Below, in pieces: positions 52,911 to 61,766 of a stretch of DNA of 64,000 nucleotides. The stretch lies in IMG/VR virus record IMGVR_UViG_2690316068_000002. One strand, 5' to 3'. The stretch is from a virus. Taxonomy: Duplodnaviria > Heunggongvirae > Uroviricota > Caudoviricetes. Within the stretch, counting starts at the first letter, position 1; every line of letters begins with the position of its first letter. The position numbers and the translations under genes were made by a program. The notes beneath the pieces were generated by a model. The model worked only from the letters and a program-made list of their open reading frames with translations. It searched no databases and was not told where the DNA came from.

Positions 52911-55900
52911 TCAGTTACTTGTTGCCCCAACAGTACCTGCAAATTTCAGCCATTGACCTGACGGACTTCTATTACTACGGTAGTGATAAACGAGGATTGC
53001 GTTTGTAACTCCACCGTAGTCAGCTTTATGTGACGTTGTTAAACGAATTGTATAATCACCGTTAGGTAGATTAAAAACTTCGATTATAGATTCTGCTAAT
53101 TCTACAGCACCAAATCCCGTTATATTGTTGATACTGCCAGCATTGAATCCCATAGCATCGCCAAAGCCAATCCAATAACTTTTGCTAAACGCCCCATTTG
53201 ATTTTAGGTGGCTAATGAATGTGGACAAACTCATGCCCATATCCCCACCTGAAACAGAGGAAGTTCGCACAGTCATACTTGGAAGAGCACTGCTCTTCAC
53301 ATAGGAACTTAGAAGGTTTGTTACCTCTGTTTTCGTATAGGCATTAAGGTTAGCCGCAGTCAAAGTAATATCGGCAGAGCCATCAAACGCCACACCAGCA
53401 ATTTTCCTTGCTGTCTGCAATTTTGTGGCGGTGGCAGCATTACCAGTAGTGTTCTGATTACCGGTTGTATTCACACCAGGTATTGAATCCTTAGCGGTAT
53501 ATACCTGCGCCCACGCTGACCATGCCGCATCAGTGGTATCTCTTCGGGAGCGAATGAAAACCGGCGCATGTGCACCGCTCGTACCACTCCAGCCAATAAG
53601 CAACTCGCCCTCACCAGCAGCACTCGCACCTTTCATGTGCAATACGTTGCCATACGTGGTCGGGTAGCTATTGCTGTACGCCTCGTACATTTGAATGCCA
53701 GCAGTACCTTGAGCAGAACCGCTTAACGCCGTAACTCGGCCACGAGATACCAATGTATTAATGTTGATATCGCCTGAGCCATCAAACTTAACACCATTGA
53801 TGTTTCTCGCTGTTTGCAACTTCGTAGCTGTTGAAGCATTACCGTTCAAACTACCATTTACGCCACCAGTCACATTTAGTCCATTACCAATTGATACAGC
53901 ACCGCTGGTATTATTAATTGTAATAGGTCGCAAACCGTTCCATGAACCTAATGTGTCTCCTGATGCTGTTAGCATGAAATATGTGTTCGATCCATCATTA
54001 CGGATAAAGAACCCAAAGCTACCGTAAGCAATGCGGAAACCATTTGCATATTTTGAAATGATCTCGCCAGAAGATGTCAAACCTCCAGATAATGTACCAC
54101 CGGTAAGAGGTAATGCACCGACATCAGAGGCTGTTGGTTTGTTTTTCGTGTTATATACTCTTCGCCATCCTGGAGAATAATCTGTGCCATTAAATACATA
54201 GATAAACTCCGCATTAGTGAGAGCACCAGAGACACTCGTCGTTGTGGCCGTTGTTATACGGATCGTATAATTGTTTGAGCTACTACCGTTATTAAATACC
54301 TCTATAACAGCTCCTGCCAATGGAATAACGCCACAACCAGTTTCACTATTTGGTATGGTTGCACTATTGGCATAGGCCCACGCACATCGAGCAATCCATG
54401 ACTTTGTGTTAAATGCTCCATTATTTTGCAATAACGTCACTAACTGTGCTGTTGTTATTGCTCCGCCATTACTTCCTGTAGTTAACCAACCAGTAGGAGA
54501 TGCCGGGCAACCTATATTTGCTGGCGACAAGGAAATATTTGCCGAGCCGTCAAACGACACCCCATTAATAGTACGCGCAGTCTGCAACTTCGTAGCAGTA
54601 GCCGCGTTGCCCGTTGTATTCTGATTACCAGTCGTATTAACACCTGGCAAATTAATATTCGCAGTACCATCAAAGCTCACGCCGCCGATAGTTCTTGCCG
54701 TCTGAAGTTTTGTAGCAGTTGCAGCATTACCAGTGGTGTTCTGATTACCCGTAGTATTTACACCTGGAAGGTTGATATTTGCAGAACCGTCGAAACCAAC
54801 TCCACCGATAGATCTTGCCGTCTGCAATTTCGTTGCTGTACTTGCATTACCATTTAATGTTCCGGTGATCCCACCAGTAACAGACAACGGACCTGAAACT
54901 GTTCCTCCGGTTGTTGGCAGTGCACCAATATCTAACGGCGTCGGTTTCTGATGTGTGCTATACATCGTATAAACAACACCATCGGTAACGCTGGAAGGCT
55001 TACTCGCTGAATATGTTGGCGATGTATAAATAGAAACTGTCGCATTTGCAGTACAATCCCAATGGATATTTACACTCGTCGCATAATTGCCAATCTCAAC
55101 GTAAATATCATATGTATCGCCGGATGTGTTGATCCAGGCGAAATTCGTTAATCCGACAGCTGTACGCTTCCACAAAGCACCTGTAATCCCTTTGGGGTTT
55201 CCATTGCCTGCTCGTAGAACCAGTTCTGAAATGCCTGCCTGATGTGGGGAGCCGACGTTGTAACCAGCGCCACCAATCAATGCGATGTAAACGATGGAAC
55301 TCGCTTGTGGCATGGTAACCGTAGCCAGTTTGAACCACCCAGCCCCGCCAGAGAAAGACATCGTTACTGAATTTAAAGTACCAATATCTTTCGGCGTTAA
55401 TGTGATATCCGCAGTCAGTGCTTTACCGTTAACTTTTCGGTTAGATGGCACCCTGCTATTCGCATTGTCATTGGCTGCTTTAACTGCTTTTGGCGTTGCG
55501 GCCAGCGATTCACTGGTGCTGTCGACAGCACTGCTAAGTTTCACAACACCTTTAGTTGTAAGGCTTGCGTCTTCCATCGCAACTGCACCGGCAATCTCTT
55601 CAGCACGATCAGCAGCAGCTTCCGCACGGGTCGCAGCGGATTCAGCAGCAGTTTTGCTCTGAGATGCTGCCGTCGCACTGCCTGCCGCCTCTGTTGCTTT
55701 CGTGGATGCCGTCGTGGCACTGCCCTTCGCTGCTGACGCCTGTCTGGTCGCCTCATCTTTTGAAGCAGACGCAGATGATGCCGATGACGCTGCCGAACTG
55801 GCGGACGATGCGGCTGCCGTTTTTGAGGATTCTGCACGGGTTTCCGACGCTTTCGCGTTCGTTTCGGATGTCTTCGCTGCGGAAGCAGACCTCGCTGCTG

Positions 55901-56939
55901 CGCTGGCCTGTTCAGTGGCTTCGCCAGCCTTCGTTGTGGCTGTTGAAGCAGACGATGCGGCACTTTCTGCCGATTTTCCGGCGGCGGTGGCACTGGCTGA
56001 GGCCTGCCCGGCACTTGTTGACGCGGCACTGGCAGACGACGCAGCCGCTGTTTTTGAGCCTGCCGCAGCTGAGGCGCTCTGTCCCGCTGCCGTCTCAGAA
56101 GACCTGGCGTTCGTCTCGGACGTTTTTGCCGCCTTCGCGGAATTTCCTGCCGCCGTTGCCGAGGAAGCTGCGCTACTGGCGCTCAAGGATGCGTTCGTTT
56201 CTGATGATTTCGCTGCCTCTTTTGAGGCCGCCGCATCCCGGGCTGAGGTGGCAGCTTCTGACGCTTTCGTGGTCGCGGTGGATGCAGAAGTGGCTGCTGA
56301 TTGTTGTGACGCTGCGGCATTCGTTTCAGATTTTTTCGCAGCAGTTGCACTCGCACTTGCGGCACTTTGTGAGGATGCCGCAGCGGATGCACTTTGAGAC
56401 GCTTGAGAGGCTTTTTCTCCAGCGGTATTGGCGCTTTCTGCTGCTGCGGCAGCACTGGCCGCCGCCTCACGAGCTTTGTCGCCAGCAGCATCAATCGCGT
56501 CAGTGTTATTTTTATACCACTCAACGTTTTCGTTGTGCTCGTTGACGATCTGCATTAGCGGCTTAACGGTTACTTCTGTACCGTCTTCACGCTCGATTGT
56601 CACCTCATCCAGAGCAGTCAACCAACTGCGCATAGACTTGGAATCAGCCGACATACGCGACATTAGTGCTGTAAAGCGCGCGCTAAACTGTGTTAAGTCG
56701 CCTTCATAGGTCGTAATGATTCGGCACGGAACTTCAGACTGAGTTTCGCCGGTATAAGGTTCTGAGAGAACAATGTTCGTATCACTGGTTACGCGCTTGA
56801 TCTCATACAGCTTATTGTCGGGGCCAATGACGATCATCCCCGGCAACACACCATTAGCTGTTACGTTCCAGGCTGTCCCTGCCCCAACCAGAGTATTGCT
56901 ACCCTGTGTAAATGTGATAGTACCTTCCCTGTACCACAT
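52911..56939 (-). CDS. side tail fiber protein
   Basis: 1342 aa; long Ala/Ser/Thr-rich SETNA-type heptad low-complexity region; C-terminal tandem tail-fiber repeats GVNTTGNQNTTGNAATATKLQTAR-x-GVSFDGSANI. Confidence 0.8.
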   Translation of the reverse strand: MWYREGTITFTQGSNTLVGAGTAWNVTANGVLPGMIVIGPDNKLYEIKRVTSDTNIVLSEPYTGETQSEVPCRIITTYEGDLTQFSARFTALMSRMSADSKSMRSWLTALDEVTIEREDGTEVTVKPLMQIVNEHNENVEWYKNNTDAIDAAGDKAREAAASAAAAAESANTAGEKASQASQSASAAASSQSAASASATAAKKSETNAAASQQSAATSASTATTKASEAATSARDAAASKEAAKSSETNASLSASSAASSATAAGNSAKAAKTSETNARSSETAAGQSASAAAGSKTAAASSASAASTSAGQASASATAAGKSAESAASSASTATTKAGEATEQASAAARSASAAKTSETNAKASETRAESSKTAAASSASSAASSASSASASKDEATRQASAAKGSATTASTKATEAAGSATAASQSKTAAESAATRAEAAADRAEEIAGAVAMEDASLTTKGVVKLSSAVDSTSESLAATPKAVKAANDNANSRVPSNRKVNGKALTADITLTPKDIGTLNSVTMSFSGGAGWFKLATVTMPQASSIVYIALIGGAGYNVGSPHQAGISELVLRAGNGNPKGITGALWKRTAVGLTNFAWINTSGDTYDIYVEIGNYATSVNIHWDCTANATVSIYTSPTYSASKPSSVTDGVVYTMYSTHQKPTPLDIGALPTTGGTVSGPLSVTGGITGTLNGNASTATKLQTARSIGGVGFDGSANINLPGVNTTGNQNTTGNAATATKLQTARTIGGVSFDGTANINLPGVNTTGNQNTTGNAATATKLQTARTINGVSFDGSANISLSPANIGCPASPTGWLTTGSNGGAITTAQLVTLLQNNGAFNTKSWIARCAWAYANSATIPNSETGCGVIPLAGAVIEVFNNGSSSNNYTIRITTATTTSVSGALTNAEFIYVFNGTDYSPGWRRVYNTKNKPTASDVGALPLTGGTLSGGLTSSGEIISKYANGFRIAYGSFGFFIRNDGSNTYFMLTASGDTLGSWNGLRPITINNTSGAVSIGNGLNVTGGVNGSLNGNASTATKLQTARNINGVKFDGSGDININTLVSRGRVTALSGSAQGTAGIQMYEAYSNSYPTTYGNVLHMKGASAAGEGELLIGWSGTSGAHAPVFIRSRRDTTDAAWSAWAQVYTAKDSIPGVNTTGNQNTTGNAATATKLQTARKIAGVAFDGSADITLTAANLNAYTKTEVTNLLSSYVKSSALPSMTVRTSSVSGGDMGMSLSTFISHLKSNGAFSKSYWIGFGDAMGFNAGSINNITGFGAVELAESIIEVFNLPNGDYTIRLTTSHKADYGGVTNAILVYHYRSNRSPSGQWLKFAGTVGATSN
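53340..54900 (-). repeat. tandem ~123-bp repeats inside side tail fiber gene
   Basis: Four or five copies of the ~41-aa tail fiber repeat visible at DNA level. Confidence 0.6.
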
Positions 56940-57032: not shown

Positions 57033-60000
57033 TCACAGACGGCCAATTCTTACTCGTAGGACGTTGTTATCGTCATAAACGTCAATCCGCTGACCATTTA
57101 TAACCAATCGCCCATTGCCGCCGCTATTACCGTTGATCTCAAGCGTTCCATTTTTGCCGAACCGCCATCCAGATCTACCGCTAACAAAATTGGTAGATTG
57201 CAGATCGCCTACTTTTGCATTGGTGATTGTGCCATCCTTGATATACGCTCCATTCATATAGGCGATACTGTTTTCGATAACAAATGGCGTTGTGATCTTC
57301 CCGTTAACAGAGTTGACCAAACCAAACCTGTCCGCCTGAACCAAAAACTGAGATAGCCCAGTGGTGTCAATACCAAGCGCAATACCGGCAACATACTTCT
57401 GCCCTCCGCTCGTTGAAGTCTCCATTTTCAACGTCCACGCGGTTGATACTTTTTTGTTGGTATCAGCAATAGCTGTTGCCTGCTGTTGAATTATCGCGGT
57501 ATTTCCATCCACCTCTGCTTTCAGAGTATCGATTCGCCCACTCAGAGCATTATCTGCCTGCGTTCTCGCTGTCGTTTCAGTTGTTACCGCCGCGGAAATG
57601 TTGGCTGCCGTTTGAGACTCTAAGTTTGTGATTTGAGTCGCCAATGCAGCATCTTGCTCTGTACGCGTTTTCGTTTCGGTTGCTACAGCCGCTTTAATAT
57701 CCTCTTTGTATTGAGAGGTCAGCTTGGTGATCTGAGATGACAACGCCGAGTCAGCATCAGTTCGAGCCTGCGTTTCAACTGCAACGGCCGCACTAATATC
57801 TTTCGCAGTCTGTGCTTTTAAACTTGAAACCTCTTTTGTTAAAGCGGTATCACCATCTGCACGAGCCGTTGTTTCTCTGGCAAGAGATGCCTCGAGATCA
57901 TTAGCTTTTGCTGTAAGAGACGTAATCTGAGTGGACAATGCACTATCGGCATCAGTCCTTGCCTTTGTCTCTACAGCAACCGCTGCGGCAATATCAGTTC
58001 CGGTCTGTGCTCGCAGGCTGTTAATTTCTCGTGAGAGCGCCTGGTCAGCACTTGCCCTGGCCTCCTGCTCCTGAGTGATGGCGGCGGATATATCACCGTC
58101 AACCTTTGCTTGAAGCTGGTTTATTTGTTTGGCTAAGGCAGAGTCCCCGCTTGCTCGAGCCTCCTGCTCACTACGTATTGCAGCAGAAATATCATCATCA
58201 ACCTTTGCCTGAAGTTGGGTGATCTGGCTTGCCAGAGCCGAATCTTCCGTTGCTCGGGCTTCTTGCTCCTCCTTAATAGCTGCGACGATATCGTTGCTTA
58301 CTTTCGACTCAAGCTGAGTGATCTGTGTCGTCAGAGCTTCATCGGCAGATGTACGAGCCTCCTGCTCTGTACTAATCGCCGCGCTGATATCTCCTTCAAA
58401 CTTAGATTGCAGCTGAGTGACACGCTTTGCCAACGCTTCATCGCCATCGGCACGAGCGGTGGACTCTTCCAGAATACTGGCCTTAATGTCTTCGCCAATT
58501 TCTACGCGAATTTCCTCAACCTTCGTGGCCATTGCAGACATATCATCAGCAAAGGTTTTCTGTGTTGTTGCGATCTTCGCGTTATTGACCATCTGCTTGT
58601 GCTGGTCTTCATCTTGACGAAGAGCCAGGTCAATATTTGTTTTGGCTAACGCCTCAATGTTCGTAGTCAGTTCTGCACTGGCACGATCGACCTCTGCAAC
58701 CGTCTTTTTCATTTCTTCAACGGCAGCGGAGCTTTCCTCTACCGTTGACTGCAACACTTCCAGTTGTTTAGCGTTTGCAGCATCGCCTTCAACACGAGCC
58801 TCGCTTTCCTTAGCAATAAGAGCCGCCGCTTCATCTCTTGCAGCCTTTATTGCCTCGACTGTATTAGCGAGAGCTTTATCGTGTTCAGATACGGTGTTTT
58901 CGATTTCAACAATTGCAGCATCAGTAGCATCAATTTTTTCAAACGCTTCATTGACCTTGTCGATCGTTGCCGAAACCTCACCTTTAAGCTCGGTTTGTGC
59001 GTTCTCCAAAGCATCGCTACGCTCGTTGAATTTTATTTCAAAATCCGCGAGGTTATCGCTGAACTGCTTATCTAATTCAGCTATATCTTCCTTAACGTCG
59101 TTTACCGCCCCCTCCAAAGATTCGACGCTCTGGTTGATATGCTCATTTAACTCGTCAACTGCCTCTTGAGAGGCTTTGCTGTTGATGTCCTCAAGCAGAG
59201 CCTGACCAAGCTCGGAAGATGTAATTTTGCCAGTCAGGAACGACAGTACATCGCGAGTTGTCGCCTCTGTACCCAAGTTTGAGTTCGGAGGACTTAACAT
59301 GCCGCGCTTGTTCGATGCTCGAACCCAGTAATACCACGTTTCACTATCCCCAAGACCAGCATGTGTAAAGGTGGTGCTTGCAGACTCTGCGATCAGTTTC
59401 GCCGTATCCAGATTGTTGGTCTGGGATGCGTAAACATTAATGTGATCAAGGTCTACCGAATCTGGATTAACCCAATTCAGTATCACATTACGATAGTCTC
59501 CAACGGCCGTTAATGACGTTGGTGCATCCGGCGGTGTCATTGTGCCCAGCACCTGATAAACGGTACTGATAATCTCTGTTTTTTTACCGTTGAATGAAAC
59601 CGCATACAGTTGGAAGTCGTAGCGTCCATTCTCCGCGACATTAACGATTTCGTATTGCTCTTCGGTTACACGCGCCGATTGCCAGTTCGATACATTGTTT
59701 TCATCAGAACGTCGCCAACTGATCCAATACTCTGGAGATTTCCCTTCCCATGTTGCAGTCAGTTTTACTGACAGGTTGCCCGGGCTTGAGAGATAAGTCC
59801 CTTCAGTGATTTGCAGATTAGATGGCTTGGAGTAAGTTGGGTCCAATACCGTCGTATTCTGCGGGATCAGCGTTGCACCATTGTCGATTGCCTCATATTT
59901 AGACGGATTGTTCTCAACAGCGGTGATGTCAAAGCTACCCGGCGTTTCCCCCTGCGCGATGTTAACGATGCGAACGCGCATAGGTTCGAGGTCTGGTTCT

Positions 60001-61766
60001 GTAATAGTCCAGACGCCGTTCAAAACAGGCGTTTCCGCTGACGACAGAGCTTTTGAAAACGTAACCTTTGTTATGCTTTCGCCAGTTTCAAGAACATCGC
60101 GTTCAACGATTTTGCCTTCCTGATTCAATATCCGAATAAAGCTGCCGCTTTTAGCTAACGACACAGGCGCATCGAGAGTGATGCTGTTTTTGGTAAACTC
60201 CACAATTCGACCGGAGTTACGTTTACCTGCACGATATTTGTTCTGAATCAGAACGGTTTCACCGGGCATCAGAAATGAGGCGTCTAAACCGGCAGTAAAT
60301 GTAATTACATCCGACTCCATTCTGGCGGTATACAAAAGCCACAAACCAACTCGGTGAGCTTGGCCTCGACTTGTACATCCAAATGCTACGACTTCTGTTT
60401 TACGCTCACCATAACGGCGCATTGCGTCCTGATCTTCAACGTACTCAATGTTTTGCTTATAACCGTCCTCCTTGTTGTTGTAGGTTACGAGCGCAACGGA
60501 TGGGCGATCTTTACGCGCAGAACCTTTATAGGTAAACAATCCATCTTTGACGTTCGAGTTGGTAAACATCATTACCGGATCTGATGGGCTATCCTGCATG
60601 ATGTTAACCATGCCACCAGCCCAAAACACCATACCGCGGAATGCACCGGCAATATCCTGAATTAATCGGTATGCGTCCTGTCGACTGGTGATCTGCGTAT
60701 TGATTGCAAAGCGTTTCTCTTTACTACCAAAGCCATCATCAACCTCTTCGTCACAATATCGACCGATCTGGTATAGCTGGCCGAGGTCAATCATAGATTC
60801 CGACACATACTGACCAAGGCCATATCGAGCATTGGTAAGCAAATCAAAGAGAATCCACGCGGGGTTTGAAGAAGACAACAGCTTAAAAGTGCCATCCCAT
60901 ACACCATCATAAGTGTTGCTGGCCTCGTTGTAGTTTGACGGCACGCGAATTTTTAATCCACGTACCAAATACGAACGAGATGGCATGGTGCTACCAAACT
61001 GCTCAGAATTAACCTTCAGACCCACCAGCACAGAGTTTGGGTAGTTCATCGGTGTATCTACAATCTCACCTATTGAGTCCACCCATGTATCGTTATAGAG
61101 ATACTGGCTGCTGTTATCATCGGTAATACGGACTACACGAACCTTGTACGCGCGTCCAGGCTTAGGCAGCTTCAGCTCATAGCTACGGTAATAAACACCT
61201 GTCTTCTTTGCTGTTAGCTTAATGCCAACGCTTTTTTCACCTTCCGCGACCACATCTACAAATGTTGAGTCGCCATTTGCTATCTGGAACTTGTACTCAA
61301 CAGTCGTACCGTTCGTGTCACCAGTTTTTTTATCTATGCTTCGCAAAGAAGGAAACTTCATGATGACACGAACCCGATCAGCTTCATCGTTATCGATTGA
61401 AACCGTTACATAATGTGTTTTTTTTAACTGGATATTGACGGATTTAGGCGTTTCAACGAAATCAAAGCCAGACATTGGAGTCTGGTCTTGTGAACCGTCG
61501 CGAAAATCCCATGTGATTCCGCTGAAGTTGGAGGAACCGTCTTCATTTACAATCGGCAGATCGTCGATAAAAATAGATCTTGCGCCATTTACTAAGCCGC
61601 CAATTACCCCTTCCCCAAGAAGATCGAGGATAGCGGCCATTGCACGAGAATTTACGGTATCGTCGGCTTCAACCGGTGTACGGCTGGAGCTTTTGCTGCT
61701 TTTTTTACCACCCGCACCGGCAATAAACAGCGGTAGCTTTTTCTTCTTGAACTGTTCCATGTTCAA
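57033..61766 (-). CDS. lambda gpJ-like central tail fiber / host specificity protein with long coiled-coil insertion
   Basis: 1577 aa; FGCTSRGQAHRVGLWLLYT and N-terminal region collinear with lambda J; C-terminal SQFLVQADRFGLVN resembles lambda J. Confidence 0.85.
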   Translation of the reverse strand: MNMEQFKKKKLPLFIAGAGGKKSSKSSSRTPVEADDTVNSRAMAAILDLLGEGVIGGLVNGARSIFIDDLPIVNEDGSSNFSGITWDFRDGSQDQTPMSGFDFVETPKSVNIQLKKTHYVTVSIDNDEADRVRVIMKFPSLRSIDKKTGDTNGTTVEYKFQIANGDSTFVDVVAEGEKSVGIKLTAKKTGVYYRSYELKLPKPGRAYKVRVVRITDDNSSQYLYNDTWVDSIGEIVDTPMNYPNSVLVGLKVNSEQFGSTMPSRSYLVRGLKIRVPSNYNEASNTYDGVWDGTFKLLSSSNPAWILFDLLTNARYGLGQYVSESMIDLGQLYQIGRYCDEEVDDGFGSKEKRFAINTQITSRQDAYRLIQDIAGAFRGMVFWAGGMVNIMQDSPSDPVMMFTNSNVKDGLFTYKGSARKDRPSVALVTYNNKEDGYKQNIEYVEDQDAMRRYGERKTEVVAFGCTSRGQAHRVGLWLLYTARMESDVITFTAGLDASFLMPGETVLIQNKYRAGKRNSGRIVEFTKNSITLDAPVSLAKSGSFIRILNQEGKIVERDVLETGESITKVTFSKALSSAETPVLNGVWTITEPDLEPMRVRIVNIAQGETPGSFDITAVENNPSKYEAIDNGATLIPQNTTVLDPTYSKPSNLQITEGTYLSSPGNLSVKLTATWEGKSPEYWISWRRSDENNVSNWQSARVTEEQYEIVNVAENGRYDFQLYAVSFNGKKTEIISTVYQVLGTMTPPDAPTSLTAVGDYRNVILNWVNPDSVDLDHINVYASQTNNLDTAKLIAESASTTFTHAGLGDSETWYYWVRASNKRGMLSPPNSNLGTEATTRDVLSFLTGKITSSELGQALLEDINSKASQEAVDELNEHINQSVESLEGAVNDVKEDIAELDKQFSDNLADFEIKFNERSDALENAQTELKGEVSATIDKVNEAFEKIDATDAAIVEIENTVSEHDKALANTVEAIKAARDEAAALIAKESEARVEGDAANAKQLEVLQSTVEESSAAVEEMKKTVAEVDRASAELTTNIEALAKTNIDLALRQDEDQHKQMVNNAKIATTQKTFADDMSAMATKVEEIRVEIGEDIKASILEESTARADGDEALAKRVTQLQSKFEGDISAAISTEQEARTSADEALTTQITQLESKVSNDIVAAIKEEQEARATEDSALASQITQLQAKVDDDISAAIRSEQEARASGDSALAKQINQLQAKVDGDISAAITQEQEARASADQALSREINSLRAQTGTDIAAAVAVETKARTDADSALSTQITSLTAKANDLEASLARETTARADGDTALTKEVSSLKAQTAKDISAAVAVETQARTDADSALSSQITKLTSQYKEDIKAAVATETKTRTEQDAALATQITNLESQTAANISAAVTTETTARTQADNALSGRIDTLKAEVDGNTAIIQQQATAIADTNKKVSTAWTLKMETSTSGGQKYVAGIALGIDTTGLSQFLVQADRFGLVNSVNGKITTPFVIENSIAYMNGAYIKDGTITNAKVGDLQSTNFVSGRSGWRFGKNGTLEINGNSGGNGRLVINGQRIDVYDDNNVLRVRIGRL
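57450..59200 (-). repeat. tandem ~84-87 bp repeats encoding ~28-aa coiled-coil units within J-like gene
   Basis: Repeating units D-x-ALA-x-QITQLQAKVD-x-DISAAI-x-EQEARA, more than 12 copies; boundaries approximate. Confidence 0.6.

Follow-up and report, generated by a model that had tools for sequence, protein, structure and literature searches.

A predicted, greatly lengthened alpha-helical shaft built partly of 33-residue units in the TipJ-type central tail fibre of an SSU5-like Escherichia coli phage-plasmid

Introduction

The source of the energy with which non-contractile tails open and breach the cell envelope is an open question. In 2026 a switch in which a coiled coil becomes a beta-prism was proposed for the F-type pyocins and was predicted to operate in related phages. 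The central fibres of the F-type pyocins of Pseudomonas aeruginosa (F2 PyoF10, PDB 25vf; F7) share the order J-like hub, two FN3 domains, long alpha-helical shaft and beta-prism tip. In F2, the side fibres are borne by a shaft in the form of a three-stranded coiled coil (PMC13455828). In the F7 pyocin a 163-residue coiled coil converts to a beta-prism, the motif SxSxxMxxLxS was reported for the switch, and AF3 predicted a beta-prism in 30% of related central fibres (PMC12874032). The terms 'SSU5' and 'repeat' are absent from the main text of that paper, which analysed 24 phages. The F7 2Q mutant assembles normally but has lost infectivity. The shaft of lambda gpJ is short (residues 809-861, ~53 aa) and partly turns into beta-sheet on binding to LamB (PMC11101478). 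In gp33 of phage T1 (1172 aa), residues 821-1172 were not resolved and are represented by an AlphaFold3 model only (PMC11945409).

Described here is a region of the central tail fibre gene in a stretch of 64,000 nucleotides of viral DNA (the window; IMG/VR record IMGVR_UViG_2690316068_000002), to which all coordinates refer; all features named are on the minus strand. With a probability of roughly 0.7, the region is a greatly lengthened alpha-helical shaft of the TipJ-type central tail fibre in an SSU5-like E. coli phage-plasmid, with the reach, side-fibre docking and refolding proposed below. The alpha-helical shaft recently described in lambda J, in T1 gp33 and in the central fibres of F-type pyocins is present here in an expanded form; built partly of repeats, the shaft is a long version of that structure and not a new kind. 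The SSU5-like phage-plasmid family is common: 168 of 5426 complete E. coli genomes contain a member, and it occurs also in Salmonella (phage SSU5), Klebsiella and, as pMT1, in Yersinia pestis.

Comparison with described systems

The closest system is that of the F-type pyocins. Their central fibres, like the J-like protein of the window, are without a receptor-binding domain of the lambda type, and the F2 fibre (25vf_A) aligns directly across the distal units and the tip of the J-like protein. The motif SxSxxMxxLxS with Arg/acid pairs at i+/-4 is common to the pyocin fibres and the array (PMC12874032), and the neighbouring pyocin side fibre has an N-terminal domain homologous to that found here. 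The shaft measures ~570 aa here versus ~163-260 aa in the F-pyocins, and ten 33-aa units are clearly recognisable, whereas those of F2 are few and degenerate. An acidic, Gly-containing kink like the DDADDGNG of F2 and F7 was not found in the J-like protein, nor in its counterparts in SSU5, PhiR41_1 and pMT1, when 13-aa windows with at least six D/E were sought. Unlike in the F-pyocins, no PyoF11- or PyoF12-like genes lie between the J-like gene and the side fibre. The F-pyocin is a tailocin, whereas the window represents a complete temperate phage-plasmid, in which any switching is predicted from sequence. The SSU5-like phage-plasmid family carries the longest and most regular version of an F-pyocin-type shaft found in this analysis.

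The best PDB match to the distal part of the protein is T1 gp33 (9l9p_S, E 2.9e-30), which contains about three copies of the 33-aa unit found here (e.g. DDIQASLTDIREVIATETEALSREIDQLKAQIG) and shares the C-terminal end ...RVQIGRL. The hub, FN3 and central straight fibre domains of lambda gpJ (PDB 8iyk, 8xcj and others) are homologous to those of the J-like protein and its short helical shaft stands at the equivalent position, but the unit HMM finds no 33-aa unit in lambda gpJ. SSU5-like phage-plasmids (SSU5, pMT1, Cyrano, PhiR41_1) carry the same gene in the same tail module, with hubs 76-100% and tips 89-97% identical. The proteins of pMT1 and pLAO4 diverge over the final ~75 aa and have ~120-140 aa extra after the tip domain, and in the Klebsiella relatives the shaft is replaced by a 1650-aa mosaic of helices and globular domains. 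The present result explains the length variation of proteins annotated as 'DUF1983 / phage tail tip fiber'.

Gene and domain features

The J-like central tail fibre (tail-tip) gene occupies 57033..61760 and encodes 1575 aa from an ATG at 61760. The ORF caller starts it at a TTG at 61766 (57033-61766); the ATG, which is the annotated start in phage Cyrano, is the likely one, and the Cyrano counterpart is named 'tail host specificity protein J'. The J homologue which the initial annotation had placed over the region is thus present, and its estimate of ~450 aa in excess of lambda J agrees with the measured 443 aa (1575 aa versus 1132 aa). Pfam matches comprise FNIII-A_GpJ, Phage-tail_3, fn3 and Phage_Tail_Tip, the first two (E 1.5e-29 and 7.5e-34) identifying a hub of the TipJ family. 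Residues 19-861 align with lambda J 3-837 (E 3e-123) and residues 1420-1548 with lambda J 840-971, the shaft sitting between these two aligned segments.

The last FN3 domain (aa 745-824; 59289..59528) scores 25.1 bits against a Pfam fn3 cut-off of 25, lies directly upstream of the shaft and can be aligned to the FNIII regions of lambda J and the F2-pyocin fibre. The Phage_Tail_Tip domain (central straight fibre, beta-prism; PF09327, DUF1983; E 2.3e-41) spans aa 1424-1557 (57090..57491), and its Foldseek matches are the open-state lambda central fibre (8xcj/8xci) and phage SU10 (7z4b). The protein terminates 18 aa past this domain. The C-terminal Ig-like receptor-binding domain of lambda J (~972-1132) is absent, no alignment passing lambda J residue 971; because these ~160 aa are missing, the net excess over lambda J is smaller than the ~570 aa of helical material. 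Against the NCBIfam model lambda_TipJ (NF049904) the protein scores 521 bits, below the cut-off of 1950. Judged by these matches, it belongs with the TipJ-type proteins but is not the equivalent of lambda J.

The helical shaft

The whole predicted alpha-helical shaft comprises aa 836-1405 (~570 aa; 57546..59255). Two monomer AF2 runs with different alignments predicted helix over these residues and strands from aa 1408-1409; pLDDT across the shaft was moderate (~45-93 for the monomer), and the helix was interrupted by two low-confidence breaks at 1052-1065 and 1248-1256. The prediction and the flanking alignments together place a long helical segment between the second FN3 domain and the beta-prism tip. 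No proline occurs in aa 845-1415 (571 aa). The interval that had been described as a repeat array (57450-59200, aa 854-1437) coincides almost exactly with the predicted helical segment; repetition was recovered in its distal 329 aa, whereas the proximal 250 aa are helical and non-repetitive. A coiled-coil-type helical array as the source of the extra length over lambda J is supported by AF2, periodicity and alignments. The array had also been termed an insertion; it instead expands an element which lambda J already has, the alpha-helical shaft at 809-861 (PMC11101478).

The proximal shaft (aa 836-1086; 58503..59255) is predicted to be helical and has no lag-33 signal; its residues 845-1086 carry a net charge of -30. 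Hydrophobic periodicity is 3.56 residues in the proximal shaft and 3.66 residues (= 33/9) in the array, both above the 99th percentile of shuffles. A canonical heptad coiled coil was rejected, power at 3.50 being at background (1.9) and the peaks lying at 3.66 (array) and 3.56 (proximal). Few Gly, 20% Ala, the amphipathic period of 3.66 residues and a charge triad at i/i+4/i+8 are helix-typical features of the array. Searched on its own against Pfam at E values up to 10, the shaft matched merely sub-threshold, generic coiled-coil families (e.g. SF-assemblin), and no curated Pfam family describes the 33-aa unit. From the amphipathic period of 3.66 and the homology to the solved F2 and F7 shafts, the shaft is probably a parallel three-stranded coiled coil.

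The ten-unit array

Lag-33 identity and a unit HMM delimit an array of ten tandem 33-aa units at aa 1087-1415 (57516..58502), the distal 329 aa and more than half of the ~570-residue shaft. The unit consensus is k...DIsAAi..Et.ARa.aD.AL..qIt.L.a. The protein identity is 0.49 at lag 33, whereas the best lag in 2000 shuffles gave 0.147 +/- 0.009 (z ~40), and each unit scores 44-57 bits with the unit HMM (E 1e-13 to 1e-19). The period is therefore 33 aa and not the ~28 aa first proposed, identity at lag 28 (0.096) being at background, and the count of more than 12 is replaced by ten tandem units (one of 32 aa) and one isolated degenerate copy. Between units, identity is ~48% in protein and on average ~52% in DNA (range 37-65%), and the longest identical DNA stretch in register is at most 14 bases. 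Because of this low identity, Tandem Repeats Finder, the check suggested with the initial annotation, reports no repeat in the array DNA; the repeat is visible at the protein level only.

Each 33-residue unit has nine core positions, giving a hendecad-like periodicity of 3.67 residues. An 11-residue sub-repeat was not found in the unit (sequence autocorrelation at lag 11, -0.47), so that the hendecad pattern is one of hydrophobicity only. E13, R17 and D21, a buried charge triad at core positions, are invariant across units. Alanine stands at the non-core positions 8, 16 and 23 in 10/10, 9/10 and 10/10 units, respectively.

The array contains 15 forward and 11 reverse matches to SxSxxMxxLxS, versus 2.4 +/- 1.4 in shuffles (26 against ~5 expected). 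The motif occurs in all ten units, twice in each, reverse at positions 8-18 and forward at 23-33. R17 sits four residues from both E13 and D21, which matches the description given for the M positions in F7 (PMC12874032); the array thus has copies of the motif that alternate in orientation and in which acidic M residues have an Arg partner at i+/-4. From aa 1408 onwards, within the last unit, strands are predicted; these resemble the 'seed' strands described for F7. Both AF2 runs gave helix only for the array and no beta alternative; as monomer predictions, which cannot form a three-chain prism, they are uninformative on such a prism, and the case for a fold switch therefore consists of the motif and the homology to F7.

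Copy number and DNA stability

Unit counts, taken from full-length genes in phage and plasmid records, are 10 in the window, 10 in Cyrano, 9 in PhiR41_1, 6 in Y. pestis pMT1 and 5 in SSU5. Matches in the protein database were fragments of up to ~925 aa, so that copy numbers from that source are a rough guide only. Copy number differs among relatives in whole 33-aa units only, as the suggested comparison of relatives brought out (10, 9, 6 and 5 units). Since copy number varies and the segment is predicted to be helical, the initial annotation is not contradicted on either point. In the relatives the shaft diverges (38-80% identity) whereas the hub and the tip on either side of it are conserved, the tip domain being 89-97% identical among relatives that differ in copy number.

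In close relatives, exactly one unit (99 nt) has been deleted at units 4 and 5 (58008..58205) on two independent occasions. In AH02 units 4 and 5 are joined into a chimera across a clean 99-nt gap and HCP30S3_I2 is wholly missing unit 4 (99 nt), each being left with nine units; a 99-nt loss was also seen in AH04. Array length was sampled in 60 rows spread over the 168 matching complete E. coli genomes. The full 1501-nt span (10 units) was present in 56 of the 60; two of the others had an exact 99-nt loss, one had an IS insertion and one was cut by the end of the record. The claim that the array is prone to expansion and contraction does not agree with these counts, nor with the ~52% DNA identity and the shared stretches of at most 14 bases. 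An unstable DNA tandem repeat (VNTR or contingency locus) was accordingly rejected, Tandem Repeats Finder being blank, DNA identity reaching 65% at most (mean 52%) and ten units being nearly fixed among close relatives. The array is not a fast-switching repeat locus. In the explanation preferred here, changes in copy number are rare and consist of the deletion or duplication, in register, of exactly one unit, and copy number plausibly sets fibre length at an estimated ~4.9 nm per unit.

Relatives with different exact unit numbers but near-identical hubs and tips provide a natural experiment in which length is separated from tip specificity. This copy-number series could test whether the switch exists in a real phage.

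The side fibre

Immediately downstream of the J-like gene lies a side tail fibre gene (52911..56939) encoding 1342 aa, with Mu/P1 S-like and T4 gp34-like domains. The N-terminal domain of its product (aa 2-107; 56619..56936) is a homologue of the domain by which the F2-pyocin side fibre PyoF13 docks on the shaft; the role of that domain in the F2 and F7 pyocins has been described (PMC13455828, PMC12874032). In a phmmer search of the PDB, aa 2-107 matched 25ve_A 3-104 (E 3.7e-4); with a profile of 11 homologues, 25ve_A was still the top match (E 4.2e-5). The similarity is weak, at 24-26 bits. The side fibre is the probable partner of the shaft.

Proposed function and alternatives

The most likely function of the region is that of a trimeric shaft which sets the reach of the fibre and anchors the side fibres. 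Three copies of the protein would form a parallel coiled coil that starts under the FN3 domains closing the tail tip and ends at the beta-prism tip. At ~4.9 nm per unit, the shaft would hold the tip domain ~85 nm from the hub, and the side fibres would dock on it as in the F2 and F7 pyocins. [quoted passage not shown] By analogy with F7, such refolding on receptor binding is considered probable; the shaft is ~3.5 times the length of the switching segment of F7. The Cyrano virion has a tail of 259 nm, versus 230 nm expected from the tape measure (PMC9928086); these dimensions are uninformative on a thin distal fibre and neither show nor exclude one of 85 nm.

One alternative is a coiled coil that stays folded. 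The shaft would then be a stable trimeric spacer that sets tip reach and carries the side fibres with no alpha-to-beta refolding, and the tail would open as in lambda, via a short segment adjoining the tip domain. The helix-only AF2 prediction for the array in both runs agrees with this, as does the stability of copy number within the lineage; moreover, lambda refolds just ~50 residues (PMC11101478), and a switch of 330-570 aa is without precedent, the F7 segment having 163 residues (PMC12874032). What a permanent coiled coil leaves unexplained are the two copies of the F7 fold-switch motif in every unit, the near-invariant Ala at the non-core positions 8, 16 and 23, for which a plain coiled coil has no need, and the strands already predicted in the last unit and where the tip domain begins, like the 'seed' strands of F7. 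A shaft of this kind is regarded as possible but rather unlikely. The opposite extreme, an array that is beta-structured already in the mature virion (as a long beta-prism or beta-helix), the predicted helix being an artefact of modelling a monomer, could draw on the strand motif in the repeat, on the inability of monomer AF2 to form an inter-chain prism and on the AF3 beta-prisms for 30% of related central fibres (PMC12874032). It is very improbable, since the solved pre-ejection structures of the homologous F2 and F7 shafts are coiled coils (PMC13455828, PMC12874032), and the absence of Pro, the few Gly, 20% Ala, the 3.66 period and the i/i+4/i+8 charge triad also speak for helix.

A different kind of explanation concerns the DNA and not the fold, namely that the array is a hypervariable repeat of the contingency type, in which frequent slippage or recombination brings about rapid variation of fibre length and host range in populations. 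Relatives do differ by exact units, and two independent one-unit deletions are found in close relatives. The units nevertheless share only 37-65% of their DNA sequence, with at most 14 identical bases in register and a blank Tandem Repeats Finder result; 56 of 60 E. coli rows have the full span against two with a 99-nt loss, and the tip domain is conserved whatever the copy number. Of the explanations considered, this one is the least credible.

Within the preferred reading of a lengthened shaft that refolds, a more specific proposal is made tentatively: each 33-residue unit could be a modular 'spring element' with two alternative states, a three-helix bundle ~4.9 nm long and a pair of antiparallel beta-prism strands of 11 residues each. 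If this were true, no known fold-switching segment would come near the array in size (at least 329 aa versus 163 aa in the F7 pyocin), and the array would collapse from ~49 nm to roughly 10 nm on receptor contact, pulling the opened tail tip to the membrane. The natural alleles of 5, 6, 9 and 10 units would then form a series in which stored energy and stroke could be compared with unit number.

Irregular units

Unit 7 (57813..57908) is the sole irregular unit of the array, with 32 aa (one residue short) according to the unit coordinates and HMM. Its counterpart is degenerate in PhiR41_1 and CMS-2020a SCU-175, and in the HMMER alignment unit 7 lies, with low confidence, opposite the kink (DADDGNG) in the shaft of the F2 pyocin. 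From its sequence, unit 7 is a candidate discontinuity in the shaft. The isolated degenerate copy of the unit (aa 979-1005, AALIAKESEARVEGDAANAKQLEVLQS; 58746..58826) scores 12.6 bits with the unit HMM (E 3.8e-5) and is conserved in SSU5, pMT1, pLAO4 and E. marmotae.

Gene and source element

The J-like gene, encoding the central tail fibre (tail-tip) protein, occupies 57033-61766 on the minus strand when counted from TTG, or 57033-61760 from the ATG annotated in relatives. The ORF call opens the gene at TTG 61766, and the Cyrano and AH02 annotations use ATG 61760, two codons downstream; residues are counted here from this ATG, which gives a protein of 1575 aa. The minus-strand gene order is tape measure, M, L, K, I, J, side fibre and lysis genes. 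E. coli plasmid CP057251 carries an identical (100%) J-like gene, Escherichia phages CMS-2020a and Cyrano (the latter being pLF82, the phage-plasmid of strain LF82) match it at 97.5-98.5%, and the 5' two-thirds of the gene share ~78% identity with Salmonella phage SSU5 and Yersinia pestis pMT1. Judged by these identities, the window is part of an SSU5-like phage-plasmid tail module.

Shaft and repeat array

The region 57450-59200 (aa 854-1437), initially annotated as a coiled-coil repeat insertion, frames a real and well-delimited feature, a predicted helical shaft whose distal part is a ten-unit array. The feature is best read as an alpha-helical shaft of a TipJ-type central fibre that has been expanded and built from repeats. 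In Pfam, the first 825 aa contain FNIII-A_GpJ, Phage-tail_3 and fn3, and aa 1424-1557 (minus strand) contain Phage_Tail_Tip, with no domain assigned between them, even at E = 10. In a PDB sequence search the protein aligns with lambda J in two blocks, aa 19-861 against J 3-837 and aa 1420-1548 against J 840-971, leaving ~560-570 residues without a lambda counterpart. The protein is indeed longer than lambda J, as had been claimed, but the net excess is only 443 aa despite the addition of ~570 aa, because the lambda receptor-binding domain (972-1132) is absent.

AF2, run with alignments of 106 and 73 homologues, predicted a continuous helix at aa 836-1405 with two low-confidence breaks, and strands starting at aa 1408-1409. 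No proline occurs in aa 845-1415. Hydrophobicity recurs every 3.66 residues along the array and every 3.56 along the proximal shaft (aa 836-1086); both periods exceed the 99th percentile of shuffles, with no power at 3.50 residues. A helical array of coiled-coil type, as in the initial annotation, is supported. By homology the shaft would be a trimer.

Protein autocorrelation gave one dominant period, 33 residues, limited to aa ~1087-1415, with a lag-33 identity of 0.49 versus a best shuffle lag mean of 0.147 ± 0.009 (2000 shuffles; z ~40). Lag 28 in the array is at background, so that the unit of ~28 aa initially annotated is replaced by one of 33 aa. Set in register, the array at 57516-58502 on the minus strand resolves into ten units placed head to tail, all of 33 aa except one of 32 aa, with a single isolated degenerate copy at aa 979-1005 (minus strand), rather than more than 12 units; the proximal 250 aa of the shaft are not repetitive, and the repeat does not fill the whole span. 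Tandem Repeats Finder reported no DNA array in the J repeat region, because the units average only 48% amino-acid and 52% nucleotide identity (maximum 65%), a divergence which shows the duplications, on sequence grounds, to be old. All ten units have D5, A8, E13, R17, D21, A23, L24 and L31, and I6, I/V10, A16 and I/V28 are almost invariant. Positions V2, I6, I10, E13, R17, D21, L24, I28 and L31 (spacing 4-4-3-4-4-3-4-3-4) can be read as core positions, nine to each 33-residue unit, in a hendecad-type pattern.

Copy number and divergence in relatives

Ten tandem units are found in the window, Cyrano and CMS-2020a isolates SCU-107 and SCU-175, nine in PhiR41_1 (exactly 33 aa shorter than SCU-175), six in Y. 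pestis pMT1, five in SSU5, E. coli pLAO4 and an E. marmotae plasmid, and none in lambda J. E. coli plasmid AH02 (95% DNA identity) has a clean 99-nt gap producing a chimeric unit 4/5, and strain HCP30S3_I2 has lost unit 4 entirely, at a different junction; these are two independent losses. The array occurs in 168 of 5426 complete E. coli genomes, plasmid-borne every time and matching at ≥95% identity in 167. Among 60 rows spread over the ranking of these 168 genomes, the full 1501-nt span was present in 56, with a 99-nt loss in two, an IS element in one and the record end in one. Copy number thus evolves by whole units and is not unstable, given the exact-unit series, the 99-nt losses and the predominance of the full span. 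Among SSU5-like elements the hub (the conserved N-terminal part of J) is 76-100% and the tip domain 89-97% identical, apart from the final ~75 aa in pMT1 and pLAO4, where identity falls away; the shaft is 38-80% identical and contains all length differences. Since the tip domain is conserved, it is unlikely that copy number directly sets receptor specificity.

Similarity to relatives breaks at two recurring points, the shaft start (aa ~870) and the array start (aa ~1094), near 59154-59146 and 58486-58453 (e.g. J-gene query positions 2121-2129 and 1421-1453), a pattern suggestive of modules being swapped there among SSU5-like elements. Y. pestis pMT-pPCP (six units) and E. coli pLAO4 (five) have ~120-140 extra residues beyond the tip domain, the last 75 aligned residues of the pMT1 and pLAO4 homologues are just 42-48% identical, and in pMT1 a DUF4376 gene separates J from the side fibre. 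Distal receptor binding is probably arranged differently in pMT-pPCP and pLAO4 than in the window phage. The J homologue of Klebsiella SSU5-like elements (vB_KpnS_p4727, vB_Kpn_1825-KPC53) has 2534 aa. Its hub is conserved to aa ~870, followed by helical stretches alternating with several globular domains of ~150-200 aa, without a terminal Phage_Tail_Tip domain and with the 33-aa unit barely detectable; this looks like a wholesale swap of the shaft and tip module. The J gene is IS-interrupted in E. coli plasmids NZ_CP085184.1 and NZ_CP029421.1 (IS3-family IS1203 and ISEc52), suggesting a loss of infectious virion production in some of these phage-plasmids.

Known fibres and a possible fold switch

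Lambda J carries a short alpha-helical shaft, residues 809-861, in precisely the same place, and on LamB binding its residues 841-861 form beta-strands atop the central straight fibre (PMC11101478). The much longer shaft of the F2-pyocin central fibre is a solved three-stranded coiled coil (PMC13455828). The distal J-like protein finds its best PDB sequence matches in T1 gp33 (9l9p_S), which also contains the 33-aa unit, and the F2-pyocin fibre (25vf_A); the C-terminal 350 residues of T1 gp33 are not resolved (PMC11945409). From its likeness to lambda, F-pyocin and T1 fibres, the shaft is no new kind of element: it belongs to a class first described in 2024-2026, of which it is a new and unusually long representative.

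In F7 pyocin, cell contact turns a 163-residue coiled coil into a triangular beta-prism; mutations of small 'S' residues in its recurrent SxSxxMxxLxS motif abolish killing with assembly unaffected, and 21 of 24 siphophage central fibres are predicted to switch similarly (PMC12874032). Scanned with the residue classes of that paper, the array has 15 forward and 11 reverse matches, versus 2.4 ± 1.4 each in shuffles; neither hub nor tip domain is enriched. A reverse copy occupies unit positions 8-18 (A-x-I-x-x-E-x-x-A-R-A) and a forward copy positions 23-33 (A-L-x-x-x-I-x-x-L-x-A) in 10/10 units. E13 (acidic, M-type) and D21 each lie four residues from R17, the arrangement given for buried salt bridges in F7 (PMC12874032). 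As strands, a unit could form either two 11-residue strands with turns or one long strand.

At ~0.15 nm per residue (4.9 nm per unit), three chains would form a parallel, nearly straight coiled coil ~85 nm long, holding the FN3 plug clamped from beneath, as lambda and the pyocins do, carrying the side fibres and presenting the beta-prism tip to the cell. On receptor engagement, the strands at the end of the last unit may seed conversion of the repeat region to a beta-prism, whereby the fibre would shorten, the side fibres be shed and the tip open. This triggered conversion is tentative, at roughly one chance in three. Its main rival is a shaft acting as a static spacer only, a role for which the predicted helix would serve; alanines 8, 16 and 23, conserved outside the coiled-coil core positions, suggest a second structural constraint. 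The rapidly varying repeat of the initial annotation agrees with the relatives in that copy number differs, and is poorly supported beside the 56 full spans; likewise poorly supported is beta-structure already in the free virion, which the motif copies could accommodate and the coiled-coil shafts solved for F2 and F7 pyocins speak against. The array is valuable mainly as a natural series of alleles on which the fold-switch model can be tested in a phage-plasmid widespread among enterobacteria.

Side fibre

Directly downstream of J lies the side tail fibre gene (52911-56939, minus strand; 1342 aa), with Mu/P1 S-like and T4 gp34-like distal domains. Its first 107 residues (56619-56936, minus strand) correspond along the entire domain to the N-terminal part of the F2-pyocin side fibre (PyoF13, 25ve_A) in the PDB sequence search, as top match both with the single sequence (E 3.7e-4) and with a profile of 11 homologues (4.2e-5). 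In F2 pyocin three side-fibre trimers dock on the shaft via their N-terminal OB and stem domains, the part that binds the shaft (PMC13455828). This homology argues that the side fibres probably hang from the J shaft and not from the distal tail protein. No acidic glycine kink resembling the pyocin docking site was found in the J-like protein; for that site, irregular unit 7 (32 aa) and the break predicted at aa 1052-1065 are no more than candidates. A weaker match of the side-fibre N-terminus is to distal tail protein gp20 (PDB entry 23gd). The side fibre also contains an Ala/Ser-rich low-complexity stretch of ~300 aa (aa ~150-450), and the motif NTTGNQNTTGNAATATKLQTAR occurs in it four times.
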